Shown piece after piece: positions 34,725 to 39,285 of a DNA stretch of 64,000 bases; position 1 is the first letter of the stretch, and each line of letters begins with the position of its first letter. The notes under the pieces are model-generated. The model had not been told where the DNA came from, ran no database searches, and saw nothing but the letters and a program-made list of their open reading frames with translations. The DNA comes from an uncultured Ignavibacteria bacterium (GTDB taxonomy: Bacteria; Zixibacteria; MSB-5A5; DSPP01; RBG-1): positions 116,124 through 180,123 of the forward strand of contig CAYNPJ010000002.1 of the NCBI GenBank assembly GCA_964399055.1. The letters are read 5' to 3'. The position numbers and the translations under genes were made by a program.

Positions 34725-35222
34725 GTGCCCAGAACAGCCTTTATACTTCTCTGCACCACTTTACTCTTCGTTTCCTGTATTAAGAAAAAAGAGGTCGCCT
34801 ACGTCTCGGATGAGTCCTTAATCCGCCAGCAGCTTACTCATTTCGAAGAGGCTTTAAAACAGATGACTCCTGAACTTTTTGCAGATTATTATGCCCGGGA
34901 CAATATCAGCGTCTTTCCCTTATGGGAAAGAGATAGCCTCTCTTCCTGGGAAGAGGTGATGAACTACTGGAAAGATTTTTTCAATAATCATCAGCTGACC
35001 GAATTCTCTCTGAGTTCAGTTACGGTGAATTCCGCCGGCCGTGTAGGCTGGGCAAATGGTAATTGGCAGATGAAGCTCGAAAAAAAGAGCTTTCCGAAGA
35101 AGAAGACTCAATACTTCACCCTGAAGGGGCGTTACACAGCCATATTTGAGAATAAAGAGGGGAGCTGGCAGGCGGTGCATGAACACATGTCTCTGGCAGA
35201 CTCGAATCTGACTGCTGAATAA
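34725..35222 (+). CDS. lipoprotein with SnoaL/NTF2-like (DUF4440-type) fold, co-transcribed with sdh
   Basis: GTG start right after sdhB TAA; lipobox FVSC; W/F-rich NTF2-like pattern. Confidence 0.5.
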   Translation: MPRTAFILLCTTLLFVSCIKKKEVAYVSDESLIRQQLTHFEEALKQMTPELFADYYARDNISVFPLWERDSLSSWEEVMNYWKDFFNNHQLTEFSLSSVTVNSAGRVGWANGNWQMKLEKKSFPKKKTQYFTLKGRYTAIFENKEGSWQAVHEHMSLADSNLTAE

Positions 35223-35234
35223 GAGAATTCCCTC

Positions 35235-35381
35235 TCATCTTTTATGCAGCCGTAATTCTCCGTTGATTATTTTGTTAACTATCTCGATGAACTTTTGAGG
35301 AGTCAGTTTCTGTAAAGAGAACTTGTGCCAAAGTTCTTTAGCGGGTTTTTTGAAAGGTTTGGGCTTCTTTTTCCTCGGCAT
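35235..35381 (-). CDS. 48-aa basic mini-protein, paralog 1 (MPRKKKPKPFKKPAKELWHKFSLQKLTPQKFIEIVNKIINGELRLHKR)
   Basis: AGGGGG SD + ATG at 35381; ~65% nt identity but conservative aa changes vs paralog 2 indicates purifying selection on protein. Confidence 0.5.
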   Translation of the reverse strand: MPRKKKPKPFKKPAKELWHKFSLQKLTPQKFIEIVNKIINGELRLHKR

Positions 35382-35494
35382 CTCAACCCCCTGGCTATTG
35401 AGATGTTGGTTTGGGCGCACTTCATAAACAACCTTTTCTTGTATGTAGGTTAAACGAAGGTGAGGAAAAATTATTTGTAACAAATGATGGGACT

Positions 35495-35530
35495 TGATTG
35501 AATATCAAATAGTTGTGAATTCTATCACAA
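35495..35530. promoter_or_regulatory. dual-palindrome element copy 1 (TGATTGAATATCA + TTGTGA-N6-TCACAA), upstream of mini-protein paralog 1
   Basis: perfect CRP-type TGTGA-N6-TCACA box at 35513-35530 preceded by 4-5-4 palindrome; ~115-150 nt upstream of ATG 35381. Confidence 0.45.
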
Positions 35531-35747
35531 TGACCTGTAAGAAAAATACCAGCTACGTCAGGTTTTGGAGAGACAGCAAGTATAGTACATCAACAACACA
35601 AAATAGGTCCTAGAATGATTCACAAATAAAAGATTACCCCACTCTTAGGAAAATAAAACTTTCCTTAAAACCCCCTGACCTCCTGCTTTTACTACCTTTG
35701 TTCTCCTTTTGAAAACTTTGAAGCCCGGGCCGAGCAAAAACCTTTAG

Positions 35748-35891
35748 CTATTTGACCAGGCGCAACTCCCCGCGGATTATTCTGTTTACCACCTGGATGA
35801 ATTTCTTAGGAGCCAGGCTCTGGAGCGAATATTTGTCCCACAGCTCCTTGGCCGGCTTCTGGAAAGGCTCAGGCTTCCTTTCCTTTGACAT
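35748..35891 (-). CDS. 47-aa basic mini-protein, paralog 2 (MSKERKPEPFQKPAKELWDKYSLQSLAPKKFIQVVNRIIRGELRLVK)
   Basis: AGGGGG SD + ATG at 35891; paralogous to 35235-35381 including 5' stem-loop. Confidence 0.5.
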   Translation of the reverse strand: MSKERKPEPFQKPAKELWDKYSLQSLAPKKFIQVVNRIIRGELRLVK

Positions 35892-36002
35892 CTCAACCCC
35901 CTGATGTTGAGATGATTGATCGGGCGCACTGTTAATACTGCCAGGCTCTGTCACAAATTAAACGAAGGGGGTGGAAAATGTGTTTGGAAAAAGTAATGGA
36001 AG

Positions 36003-36038
36003 TGATTGAGAATCAGGGGGTTGTGAAAAACGTCACAA
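36003..36038. promoter_or_regulatory. dual-palindrome element copy 2 (TGATTGAGAATCA-GGGGG-TTGTGAAAAACGTCACAA)
   Basis: perfect 13-bp and 18-bp palindromes; ~115 nt upstream of paralog 2 (minus) and ~245 nt upstream of membrane-protein gene (plus); embedded in 21/27-aa mini-ORF. Confidence 0.45.
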
Positions 36039-36281
36039 ATGGCGCGGATATACTGTTCTGATTTCTGAAGCGGCAGCATTAGATTCAGGATTAGGAGGGA
36101 CAAGTCAACTATGGATTCTGAAATGCAAGCGGACTTAAGACTCTAAAGAAGAGCGGATTAAAATATCAATCTTTGTCAACTCAGGATGGCTTGAACGACC
36201 AGAAAAGTATATCTTAAGTTTTGCATATATAGTCAAAAGGATAATGATGAGGTACAATAGATTAAAAAATAGGAGTGTCAT

Positions 36282-36824
36282 ATGGCCCAGAATGAAATTA
36301 ACGACAGCAGTGCCGTACGAACCATAGCGAACCGCCCCGGTTGTTTGGGAAAAGTGGGTTCGATATTGGCGCTGATTACAGATTTTTTTCGTCAGCTCAC
36401 CAGGGCTTTAAACACCTTAACCTATCAGTATGAATCAAGGCGGAAATTCCTGGGGCTGCCTTGGCTCTCAATAAATTTAGGTTTTGACACTCCAAATGGG
36501 AAAATGCGTCATGCCAAAGGCATCATTGCCATCGGCAGCCGGGCCACAGGTGTTTTTTCATTCGGTTTCTTTCTGTCACGCGGGCTGATAGCTGTCGGCG
36601 GGGTAGCCATAGGTCTTGGTTCAGTCAGCTTAGTCGGCCTGGCGCTGATTTCAGTGAGCGTGATTGGATTTGGGGTTGTGTCCGTGTCGGTTTTTGCCTT
36701 CGGGTATATCGCGATTGGGGTGCTGGCGCTGGGCTACAAAAGCATCGGGATTATAGCCATAGGCAAGGAGGTGGTGGGTATTATTGGAATAGGGCAGGAG
36801 GTTAATTCACTTTTCACTCCTTAG
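36282..36824 (+). CDS. membrane protein with C-terminal glycine-zipper/(I/V)AIG repeat region
   Basis: AGGAG RBS; N-terminal ~75 aa soluble part then repeated GIIAIG/GLIAVGGVAIGLG/IGFGVV/YIAIGVLALG/IGIIAIG/VGIIGIG motifs. Confidence 0.6.
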   Translation: MAQNEINDSSAVRTIANRPGCLGKVGSILALITDFFRQLTRALNTLTYQYESRRKFLGLPWLSINLGFDTPNGKMRHAKGIIAIGSRATGVFSFGFFLSRGLIAVGGVAIGLGSVSLVGLALISVSVIGFGVVSVSVFAFGYIAIGVLALGYKSIGIIAIGKEVVGIIGIGQEVNSLFTP

Positions 36825-36871
36825 AGAGGGGCTTTGGGAGGGAAATCTGTCTCAAAAGAAAGTGATGAAAT

Positions 36872-36907
36872 TAATTGAGAATCAGGGGGTTGTGAAAAGT
36901 GTCACAA
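36872..36907. promoter_or_regulatory. dual-palindrome element copy 3 (TAATTGAGAATCA-GGGGG-TTGTGAAAAGTGTCACAA), upstream of small ORF/protease
   Basis: perfect TGTGA-N6-TCACA box at 36890-36907; ~175 nt upstream of GTG 37082. Confidence 0.45.
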
Positions 36908-37081
36908 ATGGTGGAGAGGTCTCCCCTCTCCGCCTTTTTCTCTTGCTCGCGGAAAAATCTCTCCCACCCTTATTATCCAGAGTATTACGTATTATTATTA
37001 AAGAACCTTATTTTTTCTACCGATTACACTTGACAAGAAACGTTGACTGCGTTTATCTTGCCCTTGGAGGTGAGACCACCT

Positions 37082-37285
37082 GTGAACAGCGAGATACTTA
37101 AACAAGTACAGGAATACCGTAAGCGTCATCCAGATATTGATGCGATGCTCAAAAAACTCCGCATGACCCAGGAGGAATATGAGCGGGCCCTCGCTGCTAT
37201 CTCAGTGAGAGTGCCTAAGCACGAGCCTACGTTTAGCACAACGCTGAATCAATCCTATAATGCCAACGTTTCAACATCTACTTGA
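37082..37285 (+). CDS. hypothetical 67-aa helical protein (start GTG with GGAGGTGA RBS), overlaps protease start by 26 nt
   Basis: VNSEILKQVQEYRKRHPDIDAMLKKLRMTQEEYERALAAI...; RBS 8 nt upstream; translationally coupled position. Confidence 0.4.
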   Translation: MNSEILKQVQEYRKRHPDIDAMLKKLRMTQEEYERALAAISVRVPKHEPTFSTTLNQSYNANVSTST

Positions 37286-38249
37286 TAGCCTCCAAAACCC
37301 CCAACAACACAAGCAGCTTCGCCTCCAGAAAATAGCAGCGATTGAGACCATTACTGGCCGCCCGCTGATTGTATATGCAGCAAAAAGGGCGGCTGGCTTT
37401 TTTATCCCCAATGCTATTGATGATTCTGATATTACTGGTTTCAGTGACCTCATCGAGGGGATCACCGAGAAAAAGCTCGACGTATTACTGGAAAGCCCCG
37501 GTGGTCAGGCCGAGTCTACAGAGCGCATTGTTAATCTACTGAGAGAAAACTTCGAAGAAGTTCGGTTTATAATACCTCACTCCGCTTATAGTGCAGCAAC
37601 CATGCTGTCACTGTCAGGAGACCAAATTCTAATCGATGACAGGTCAACATTAGGCCCAATTGACCCGCAAATCCTCATCTCCTCTCCTAACGGCCCGACT
37701 ATGGCTGTACCGACTCAAGATATCCTCGACGCATTTAAAGAACTACGGAAAACACTGAAAAAAGAAGGAGCGGGGGTCTTGCCAGCTTATTATCCCATGA
37801 TTATTAAGTACGACCTGCATATATTTGAAATCTGTAAGAAAGCCCAACGCCTCTCCACCACACTTGTTCAGAATTGGCTTCAGCGGTTTATGTTCAAGAA
37901 CGACCCGAAGAGGAAACAAAAAGGAAGTAAAATTACGAAGCGATTCGCGGACCGGCGGAAGAATCTATCCCACAGCAGGAGTTTAGGGGTTACAGAACTC
38001 AAGCAACTTGGTCTTCAAATAGACGACCTGCGAAATACTCCTAACCTGCGAGGCACTGTATGGGAACTTTACTGTTTAATTGAACTCTTTTTTGACAGAA
38101 CTACTGCAATAAAGTTGTTTGAGAACTCGCGTGGAGTGAGCTGGTCAAGAAACTTTCAGCAATTCATATCCATCCCACTGTCAGCTCCCCAACCACCTCC
38201 ACAGATGCCACAGCAACCTCCGGTTACGCTTCCGCCGGCATCACCCTAA
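37260..38249 (+). CDS. ClpP-class serine protease of the SDH (serine dehydrogenase proteinase)/S49-like family with Pro/Gln-rich C-terminal tail
   Basis: ESPGGQAEST oxyanion-hole motif and HSAYSAATMLSLSGDQILI Ser-nucleophile region as in ClpP/SppA/SDH_sah; tail PQPPPQMPQQPPVTLPPASP. Confidence 0.65.
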   Translation: MPTFQHLLDSLQNPQQHKQLRLQKIAAIETITGRPLIVYAAKRAAGFFIPNAIDDSDITGFSDLIEGITEKKLDVLLESPGGQAESTERIVNLLRENFEEVRFIIPHSAYSAATMLSLSGDQILIDDRSTLGPIDPQILISSPNGPTMAVPTQDILDAFKELRKTLKKEGAGVLPAYYPMIIKYDLHIFEICKKAQRLSTTLVQNWLQRFMFKNDPKRKQKGSKITKRFADRRKNLSHSRSLGVTELKQLGLQIDDLRNTPNLRGTVWELYCLIELFFDRTTAIKLFENSRGVSWSRNFQQFISIPLSAPQPPPQMPQQPPVTLPPASP

Positions 38250-38278
38250 TAACTTTATACCTTTGCCAGGCACAAATC

Positions 38279-38300
38279 TCTCACTTTGGGTAAAGTGAGA
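38279..38300 (+). terminator. hairpin terminator between convergent protease and fumB genes
   Basis: TCTCACTTT-gggt-AAAGTGAGA followed by AATATTTCCTCT. Confidence 0.45.
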
Positions 38301-38418: not shown

Positions 38419-38988
38419 TCAGCCCGTCTCCAGCAAGCTAAATCTCTTCCTCCCCTCCACAAACAAATTCCCCCCGTGACAATCCTGGGCCACAATCACC
38501 GGAAAATCCTTCACCGTAAACTTCCGAATCGCCTCCGGCCCCAGATCTTCATAAGCCACAATCTCGCTGTTAACAATATGCTCCCTCAAAAGCGCGCCTG
38601 CCCCGCCCGTAGCCAGAAAATAAACCGCCTTATGCTGTTTCATCGCCTCCTGGGTCTCGGGCGAAACTGCTCCTTTGCCTATCATCCCTTTTAAGCCTAA
38701 AGCAATCAAACTCGGTGCATACTTGCTCATCCGGTAGGCTGTAGTAGGTCCGGCTGAGCCGATAATTTCTCCTGGAGGAGCAGGGGTGGGGCCCACGTAA
38801 TATATTACCTGCCCCTTAATCTCAAAAGGGAGTTTTTCTCCAGTTTCAACTAACTGAATCAATCTCTTGTGTGCGGCATCCCGGGCCGTGTAGAGCGCCC
38901 CGGAAATTAAGATTCTGTCGCCGATTTTAAGCGAATCTACCAGTTCATTGGTGAAGGGTGTGAAGATTTTTTTGGCTCCGTTAGACAT
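38419..38988 (-). CDS. Fe-S hydro-lyase beta subunit (class I fumarate hydratase FumB / tartrate dehydratase beta-type); start re-set to internal ATG with GGAGG RBS
   Basis: MSNGAKKIFTPF...GDRILISGALYTARDAAHKRL...YYVGPTPAPPGEIIGSAGPTTAYRM...VIVAQDCHGGNLF matches FumA/TtdB C-terminal domain; no alpha subunit adjacent. Confidence 0.8.
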   Translation of the reverse strand: MSNGAKKIFTPFTNELVDSLKIGDRILISGALYTARDAAHKRLIQLVETGEKLPFEIKGQVIYYVGPTPAPPGEIIGSAGPTTAYRMSKYAPSLIALGLKGMIGKGAVSPETQEAMKQHKAVYFLATGGAGALLREHIVNSEIVAYEDLGPEAIRKFTVKDFPVIVAQDCHGGNLFVEGRKRFSLLETG

Positions 38989-39285
38989 GGCAACCTCCAG
39001 ACTGGCCTGTGTGCAAGGCTTCTTTATTTTAGAATAATTGATTCTTCTGCAGAAGTCAAACCCTAAAGAAAAACGCCTCTGTGTGGAATAAGACCGCTGC
39101 TCCTGTAGCTTATTTGAAACGCCATCTGGCAGTAAGAGAATCAGTCTCAGGCCGGAGCACTGCCCTGCTTGCCTTATAAATAGATTGCTTGCAAACCCGG
39201 AAGATTTTATTATCTTGCCATATGAACTTATAGTGAACCTCAATACATAAGCATTGAGTAAAATAGCTCAAAAAAGGAGGTGTGT

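Follow-up and report, generated by a model that had tools for sequence, protein, structure and literature searches.

The subject of this analysis is a stretch of 64,000 nucleotides (hereinafter the window) from the genome assembly of an uncultured Ignavibacteria bacterium (GCA_964399055.1, contig CAYNPJ010000002.1), in which about 3 kb between two blocks of central-metabolism genes are occupied by several small genes and by a gene for a protease of the SDH family. The left flank of this region is formed by sdhCDAB followed by the gene for a SnoaL-like lipoprotein, and the right flank by fumB and pckG. Between them lie two tandem genes for basic mini-proteins with a leader carrying a palindromic element, a gene for a glycine-zipper membrane protein, and a two-gene cassette in which a small open reading frame (ORF) runs into the start of a gene for a ClpP-fold serine protease (Table 1). 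All coordinates are positions in the window, and labels of the form L001 denote the loci or contigs of relatives with which it was compared. An original prediction, made before any database search, had presented these genes as coordinately regulated and as possibly forming one membrane-associated protease module. We instead favor, at a probability of roughly 60%, a mosaic of three independent units: the conserved mini genes with their leader, a stand-alone membrane gene in a hot-spot, and a mobile two-gene protease cassette that we read as a conflict module.

Table 1. Features of the region between sdhCDAB and fumB and the evidence on which each was called (SD, Shine–Dalgarno)
Feature	Position	Strand	Basis or remark
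SnoaL-like lipoprotein gene, last of the sdhCDAB block	34725..35222	+	PF13474 SnoaL_3, 6.5e-14
Mini-protein gene 1, 48 aa, basic, convergent to SnoaL	35235..35381	-	ORF listing; profile search
Start-codon/SD hairpin of mini gene 1, CATCTCAA...GGGGG...TTGAGATG	35379..35405	-	Sequence reading
Leader element copy 1 (TTGAT-N5-ATCAA + TTGTGA-N6-TCACAA), in the diverged leader of mini gene 1	35494..35530	-	Palindrome at -148 from ATG
Mini-protein gene 2, 47 aa, basic	35748..35891	-	ORF listing; profile search
Full conserved leader of mini gene 2	35892..36056	-	Start-codon hairpin 35889-35914, C-rich blocks, element copy 2 at 36002-36038 (-146)
Stand-alone glycine-zipper membrane-protein gene, 180 aa	36282..36824	+	Hydrophobic stretch and repeat motifs
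Orphan leader fragment with element copy 3 (36871-36907) and GC-rich hairpin	36836..36980	-	86% identical to the L176 leader
Cassette promoter-like site, TTGACA-18-TATCTT, 10/12	37030..37059	+	Consensus match only
Small partner ORF, 67 aa, GTG start after GGAGGTGA	37082..37285	+	Helical N-half, Ser/Thr/Asn-rich C-terminal tail
SDH-family ClpP-fold serine protease gene, 329 aa, C-terminal helical domain, Pro/Gln-rich tail	37260..38249	+	PF01972, 5.8e-18
Terminator-like hairpin 3′ of the protease gene	38279..38300	+	Terminator scan
fumB, class I fumarate hydratase beta subunit, right conserved flank	38419..39243	-	PF05683, 5.6e-55

The SnoaL-like gene is also found 3′ of sdhB in L091, L099 and L176, and the mini genes adjoin SnoaL/sdhB in L091–L102, where sdhB is 82–90% identical, as well as in L176. 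The latter is the closer relative, with a wider synteny as in the window (rhomboid, PpiD-like, sdhCDAB, SnoaL ... fumB, pckG, L27) and with both mini genes present in unchanged order; the homology between the two ends at 36062 and restarts at 38429. In between, L176 has three consecutive ORFs of 226, 232 and 427 aa with zero Pfam matches (L176 8811-11442), L099 has a tetratricopeptide-repeat lipoprotein of 444 aa, and neither has the cassette at this locus. Because different genes stand there in L176 and L099, we regard the DNA from the leader to fumB as a variable hot-spot and the membrane gene and the cassette as its cargo; conversely, since the mini genes adjoin sdhCDAB–SnoaL in every relative found, we regard them as core to the lineage (probably Zixibacteria) and not accessory. 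The ClpC of the window falls into one 90%-identity cluster with a protein of 'candidate division Zixibacteria bacterium RBG_16_50_21', and a Zixibacteria genome is accordingly the probable source. The initial description of the whole region as an accessory island thus holds for the part from the leader to fumB and fails for the mini genes. On the question of whether the sdhB–lipoprotein pair directly precedes fumB elsewhere, we find the mini genes beside SnoaL in every relative of this clade found and the intervening DNA up to fumB variable (L176, L099).

The flank of the hot-spot appears to vary too, given that an ORF resembling, by eye, the ATP-dependent phosphoenolpyruvate carboxykinase (PckA-type) lies upstream of fumB in L099 (1689-3320), at a place taken by PckG, the GTP-dependent enzyme, in the window and L176. 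The contigs of L091, L097, L100 and L102 end 250–410 nt upstream of the first mini gene, as would be expected if assembly broke off at the repeated leader or at cargo that varies between strains. Base composition shows a slight dip only across the part with the mini genes and leader (38–45% G+C as against 45–55%), and the cassette is not set off by it, having a G+C content near that of its flanks. Scans of the island for tRNA/tmRNA genes and Rfam families detected neither an RNA gene nor a tRNA that could have served as an att-like target, and an inverted repeat around the cassette (I6, 37081/38561) looks like a chance occurrence, with one of its arms within fumB.

Mini-protein genes, their leader and the membrane gene

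The original prediction of two diverged tandem copies of a basic protein is borne out: the products of 48 and 47 aa, both encoded on the minus strand, are 66% identical, have isoelectric points of 10.9 and 10.3, and lie in a tandem repeat unit of ~510 bp (repeat finder). L176 and L097 each have an orthologue of mini gene 1, 81% identical, in the corresponding position; the tandem pair recurs in L091/L092/L093, L097 and L176, and L099 has a single mini gene. Beyond this clade, the mini-protein profile retrieved 16 relatives from a word-indexed collection, and an exhaustive search gave 230 clusters at 50% identity, nearly all of them stand-alone proteins of 45–100 aa, so that the expected conservation outside the locus is amply seen. 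Across 80 metagenome loci we observe two contexts, an M23 peptidase type (the majority) and the sdh type to which the window's clade belongs. In most of these loci (L103–L175) a mini gene for a protein of ~46 aa directly precedes the gene for an M23 peptidase, and a cation-efflux gene and a gene for an extracytoplasmic-function (ECF) sigma factor often come next; this looks like a conserved neighborhood of small gene and peptidase that carries no annotation.

Of the four kinds of protein for which profile searches had been proposed, the protease matches PF01972, the small ORF has no Pfam match above threshold, and the mini-proteins and the membrane protein have none; the latter two also lack matches in NCBIfam and PHROGs and, at E<=0.1, in PADLOC. 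A PDB sequence search with the mini-protein profile returned nothing meaningful. The AlphaFold model of the mini-protein, with a mean predicted local distance difference test score (pLDDT) of 71, consists of a basic disordered N-terminus and one helix (residues 28–47), and a fold search on it would be meaningless for that reason. As a guess from composition, these proteins would be compatible with nucleic-acid binding.

Every locus of the sdh clade has a conserved leader of ~170 nt before its first mini gene. A repeat finder picks out of it an element of 37 nt that occurs in the window in three direct copies, all oriented as the mini-gene leader is. The element's second palindrome, TTGTGA-N6-TCACAA, is perfect in all three copies, against a chance expectation of 0.12 matches, and three matches were reached in none of 100 shuffles; a scan of the entire window found no further perfect TGTGA-N6-TCACA. 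The first palindrome is less regular, namely TGATT-N3-AATCA in copy 2, an imperfect TAATT...AATCA in copy 3 and a different TTGAT-N5-ATCAA in copy 1, and in several relatives it is not retained as a palindrome. What stands of the three dual perfect palindromes first reported is, therefore, their number and the perfection of the second palindrome, the first being perfect only in copy 2. Nor are these free-standing elements placed before each gene, as had been supposed, being instead direct repeats of the mini-gene leader.

The leader of mini gene 2 aligns with six other leaders at 84% mean column identity. TGTGA-N6-TCACA recurs at -146 to -148 from the ATG in 9 leader copies, with invariant half-sites and a variable spacer, and in copy 1 the flanks have changed yet the half-sites are intact. 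The site lies ~67 bp upstream of the sole conserved -10-like motif (counted from the sequence), and its half-sites with the 6-bp spacer match the Escherichia coli CRP consensus, a lead and not a test. Further features of the leader are the start-codon/SD hairpin, kept in all sdh-clade copies, and a C-rich stretch, CAACCCCCTG, complementary to the SD region CAGGGGGTTG; just past it, L091, L098, L099 and L101 have a GC-rich hairpin with a T-run on the sdh-sense strand. We propose that the palindrome serves as an operator for a dimeric regulator, to which the SD-complementary stretch may add translational control.

The same conservation might instead reflect a structured RNA in the 5′ untranslated region, in which CAACCCCCUG masks the SD region CAGGGGGUUG of the mini-protein mRNA by pairing, and the palindrome forms a UUGUGA/UCACAA hairpin. 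In keeping with this, six of the seven leaders retain the complementarity of 10–12 nt, L099 by way of a G-U wobble; minimum-energy folding predicts the long-range pairing for five of the six full leaders, provided that the element is transcribed, and it is the entire 170 nt that are conserved. Against it, no compensatory change is seen; copy 1 has lost the SD complementarity and keeps perfect half-sites, and these match the CRP consensus. Moreover, Rfam 15 yielded no credible match in the window segment 34500-39500 or in L001, L089, L090 and L091 (E<=1-5). We consider the RNA reading possible, at the tentative end of the scale.

Three other candidates were rejected. The element read as a plus-strand peptide (IENQGVVK[N/S]VTNG in copies 2 and 3) has inconsistent ORF boundaries, the ORF measuring 21 aa in copy 2 but 79 aa in copy 3 and being out of frame or stopped in copy 1, and the changes between copies are located in the palindrome spacer. 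For the conserved CTGGCAGT...GCAGTGCG, the reading as a sigma-54 promoter fails by inspection on the GG-to-GC spacing, which is 8 or 13 nt instead of 10. A T-arm-like hairpin upstream of the L001 mini gene is not conserved, with even its GTTCGA motif present in only 3 of 86 loci.

On the plus strand of the window there is no terminator-like site between SnoaL and 36910. Transcription of the sdh operon may accordingly extend antisense across the mini genes and stop only after them, as the first terminator-like site after SnoaL on the sdh-sense strand is the GC-rich hairpin beyond the mini-gene leader. The stretches concerned are 35222-36934 on the plus strand of the window, 5675-5700 in L099 and 232-270 in L092, and the mini genes may thus lie within the 3′ part of the sdhCDAB–SnoaL transcript, antisense to it.

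The third copy of the element belongs to a fragment that aligns with the hairpin-plus-element segment of L091, L099 and L101 and whose homology to these ends 12 nt from the stop codon of the membrane gene. From this alignment and the subsequent loss of homology, we read copy 3 as a truncated, orphan leader in mini-gene orientation. Its hairpin, read on the plus strand, scores as a terminator (36910-36934 plus T-run; consensus scan) behind the membrane gene and separates copy 3 from the promoter-like site of the cassette. The suggestion that a shared element co-regulates all genes of the region loses its footing here: all copies are oriented as the mini-gene leader is, copy 3 is truncated, and a terminator-like hairpin stands between it and the cassette promoter-like site. 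The membrane gene itself sits between two leader copies, the distal of which is the truncated one. It might have been inserted within a duplicated leader, an event that would have left the truncated third copy and shifted the terminator hairpin downstream of the membrane gene.

The membrane protein does show the glycine-zipper repeats in its C-terminal half that had been read from the translation, in the form of a hydrophobic region at residues 91–161 with ten [hydrophobic]-[A/G/S]-[hydrophobic]-G motifs. Full-length orthologues with 46–74% identity are found in metagenome-assembled genomes (MAGs) named Calditrichia, KSB1 and Bacteroidales. The three orthologue loci present three unrelated contexts, and none of the three has the protease, the small ORF, a mini gene or the palindrome; conversely, a screen of 86 protease loci found no convincing homologue of the membrane protein nearby (best E=0.63). 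Its proposed role as the partner of the protease thus finds no support. In many other bacteria, the glycine-zipper C-terminal region is also fused to XRE-type helix-turn-helix or zinc-ribbon N-terminal domains, which suggests that it is a reusable membrane-anchor module.

The two-gene protease cassette

The original prediction of a 67-aa ORF overlapping a ClpP-fold, SDH-like protease gene was upheld, the overlap being 26 nt. The two genes form a self-contained unit in the window, with a promoter-like site before them and a terminator-like hairpin after them. The protease passes the gathering score of PF01972 SDH_protease (65.3 bits as against 31.3), with a match that spans profile positions 90–259 only, and falls short of the equivalog cut-off of NCBIfam NF047768 (64.5 as against 250); with the first threshold passed and the second not, we classify it as a member of the SDH family and not as the curated equivalog. 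In an alignment of 26 homologues with 46–100% identity, Ser111 (in AYSAAT), Asp135 (in GPIDPQ) and S237 are invariant and His238 (in LSHxR) is nearly so, and Ser, Asp and His are the predicted catalytic residues. Its AlphaFold model (pLDDT 86; predicted template-modelling score 0.82) matches ClpP and NfeD 1510-N in the PDB with a Foldseek probability of 1.0. By sequence, the only solved relatives in the PDB are the 1510-N entries (E=2e-4), with S111 aligned to the second serine of their SAASAG motif. The best viral structural matches are 'serine dehydrogenase proteinase' models in BFVD, with template-modelling (TM) scores of 0.5–0.6; these represent multiple paralogues of giant viruses (Klosneuvirinae, Mimivirus-like, Marseillevirus-like), among which the SDH family appears to have expanded. 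Transmembrane-like segments are absent from both the protease and the small ORF, and for this reason a membrane-associated module after the NfeD/stomatin pattern is unsupported.

Protease homologues number 1865 in a large protein collection, those with a named source coming from Thermodesulfobacteriota, Bipolaricaulota, Chloroflexota, Pseudomonadota and unclassified MAGs, and a genome scan adds Acidobacteriota, Patescibacteria, Nitrosopumilus, Halorubrum, Thermoplasmata and others. On the contigs of the close homologues, an ORF of 66–70 aa overlaps the protease start and the remaining neighbors vary. With iterative profile searches, a relative of the small ORF was found directly upstream of the protease gene in 68 of 86 loci, ending between -179 and +56 nt from the protease start. 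These relatives form four sequence groups, all of which combine a helical N-terminal half with a Ser/Thr/Asn-rich C-terminal stretch, and at more distant viral loci upstream small ORFs with similar tails lie beyond profile detection. The small ORF has no above-threshold family match in Pfam, PADLOC, NCBIfam or PHROGs and nothing meaningful in a PDB sequence search; its matches in PADLOC-DB 2.0 are weak and of coiled-coil type (E >= 0.006), and no DNA-binding domain is recognizable in it.

The surroundings of the pair are diverse, and no other neighbor is constant: 107 immediate neighbors at 58 loci fall into 75 Pfam families, and in the list of the 25 top families the phage integrase is the sole one seen three times. 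Phage records with a homologue of the protease number 7 and plasmid records 40, and 170 stretches in IMG/VR encode a relative. Among the phages are Gordonia phage BeeGee, Porphyromonas phages, in which the gene lies beside HicAB, and a Shewanella Mu-like phage; in a Klebsiella lambdoid prophage the homologue is situated between replication and antiterminator genes together with an annotated upstream ORF of 67 aa, and in a Pseudomonas aeruginosa element it adjoins an integrase. In L003 (1-5441; GCA_040960625.1) the cassette stands directly 3′ of the gene for a giant protein of 5,686 aa with InPase, SNF2-related and helicase domains. Among the homologues with context, the protease of L001/L121 (1-1832; JGI Ga0184627_10000096) is the closest, at 66% identity.

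Given its architecture, mobility and association with mobile elements, we infer that the cassette is a conflict module composed of a protease and its cognate partner. Under this proposal, the two genes would travel horizontally as a unit; the small protein would be the cognate inhibitor or a substrate of the protease, with its tail held in the substrate groove; and the pair would act as a toxin–antitoxin (TA)-like or phage-conflict module and not in housekeeping proteolysis.

An alternative that we consider unlikely, though it has some facts on its side, is a protease of routine cellular use with a small subunit that regulates it or acts as a chaperone; it would serve quality control or peptide turnover and have no conflict role. 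The pair is encoded on the chromosomes of many free-living bacteria and archaea beside metabolic genes (for example, between mtnA/aldolase and NIF3 at one locus in Bipolaricaulota), it matches no defence model, and its G+C content does not stand out. What speaks against it is the patchy distribution, with close relatives lacking the cassette at the same locus, the occurrence in phages, prophage accessory regions and plasmids, at times beside integrases or insertion-sequence elements, and the splitting of the small partner into at least four sequence groups.

Improbable, in our view, is that the cassette is a remnant of prophage head morphogenesis, with an S49/ClpP-like prohead protease and a scaffold-like small protein; the original prediction had drawn a comparison with S49 prohead-protease logic, though with different partners. 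There are weak matches to head-maturation proteases (NF045542, 7.9e-08; phrog_1684, 5.9e-09), and the Porphyromonas phages have the gene between the portal and neck genes. However, NF045542 remains far under its cut-off (32.4 bits as against 120), and the best PHROG is phrog_11747 (9.2e-50), a family of unknown function. No capsid, portal, terminase or other structural gene is near in the window or at most of the 86 loci; the Mu-like, lambdoid and Gordonia phages carry the gene in accessory regions away from the head genes, and the isolated pair is common in archaea and genomes of the candidate phyla radiation.

The mosaic reading and known systems

The single module of mini-proteins, glycine-zipper protein, small ORF and protease under a triplicated operator is hardly credible and largely refuted by the comparative context as we read it: for all the physical adjacency of the genes, the confinement of the palindrome within the 64 kb to its three occurrences here, the position of copy 3 between the membrane gene and the cassette, and the mini gene close to the 66% identical protease of L001, no co-occurrence of the components is seen elsewhere, relatives retain the mini genes and leader without the other genes, copy 3 is a leader remnant set off from the cassette promoter-like site by a terminator-like hairpin, and the protease has no transmembrane segment.

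Several points count against the mosaic of three units in turn. The leader stems never vary, so that no covariation separates the operator from the RNA reading. The promoter and terminator calls for the cassette are products of consensus scans, and copy 3, ~125 nt upstream of the promoter-like site, could still bind a regulator. The inhibitor or substrate role of the small protein is drawn from gene order, overlap and tail composition; nothing on an SDH-type protease cassette, its family or its partner was found in the literature searched, and PADLOC has no model for the cassette, the protease having zero matches in PADLOC-DB 2.0 at E<=0.1. Finally, the protease of L001/L121 lies ~600 bp upstream of a mini gene of the other clade (mini gene, M23 peptidase, cation diffusion facilitator, ECF sigma factor), so that a link between the protease and the mini genes is possible. 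The co-location in L001 might be fortuitous, or it might reflect a preference for insertion beside mini genes that the loci share. L089 displays the mini/M23/ECF arrangement of L001 without the protease.

On a bolder and rather doubtful view, the cassette would be an undescribed and very widespread two-gene conflict system, in which a protease 'toxin' or effector is checked by, or acts through, a fast-evolving partner in phages, plasmids and chromosomal hot-spots of bacteria and archaea. Separately, the basic proteins of about 47 aa would constitute a new family of small regulators, encoded antisense within the 3′ part of the sdh operon under the control of a conserved leader with a palindrome and SD sequestration.

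The comparison with relatives dissolves the multi-component membrane protease system and removes the case for following up a false module. What it leaves is a protease with a tiny, quickly diverging partner gene almost always ahead of its own, spread over bacteria, archaea, phages and plasmids and with no function recorded in the databases and literature searched, which makes the pair a reasonable candidate for TA and phage-defence screens. The mini-protein family, absent from Pfam, with 230 clusters at 50% identity, a strongly conserved leader and a place convergent to the sdh operon in a candidate phylum, shows how many conserved small genes go unannotated.

Of the known systems, the CRP/FNR-type operators (TGTGA-N6-TCACA) resemble the leader palindrome in half-sites, 6-bp spacer and fixed distance from the gene; at the locus, the site is a candidate read from sequence and could instead be an RNA hairpin. 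The stomatin-specific membrane protease NfeD/1510-N (PH1510; PDB 2deo, 3bpp, 3viv) is the closest solved structure by sequence, with an aligned nucleophile serine. Unlike it, the cassette protease is without a stomatin/SPFH gene, the NfeD C-terminal OB domain and a membrane segment, and it scores 19.6 bits against NfeD1b_N, whose cut-off is 40. 1510-N uses a Ser-Lys dyad, in contrast to the Ser-Asp-His kept in the cassette protease family. No SPFH gene was met in the neighbor screen (among the 25 top families listed of 75) or in the ORF list of the island, to which the scan of the window was confined, and the glycine-zipper neighbor shows no relationship to stomatin and no co-occurrence with the protease. 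The ClpP-like/S49 prohead proteases of tailed phages (NF045542, phrog_1684) share the fold class and the presence in phage genomes; the cassette protease differs from them in its sub-threshold scores, in lacking capsid or scaffold neighbors and in its position mainly in phage accessory regions.

Type II TA and ImmA/ImmR-like pairs offer a parallel in the small upstream gene that overlaps an enzyme gene, in mobility, patchiness and prophage accessory sites, and in the quick divergence of the partner. The cassette has no homology to a known toxin, antitoxin or defence protein, and the likeness is one of architecture and mobility. The protease belongs with the SDH-family Clp-fold serine proteinases (PF01972; NF047768; PHROG 11747), with which it shares the Ser-Asp-His order, the ClpP-like fold and the Pfam score. 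In the literature searched we found no description of a small coupled partner for a protease of this type. The cassette subfamily differs from the rest of the family as a predicted cytoplasmic protease with a C-terminal helical domain, a Pro/Gln tail and a small, translationally coupled partner.

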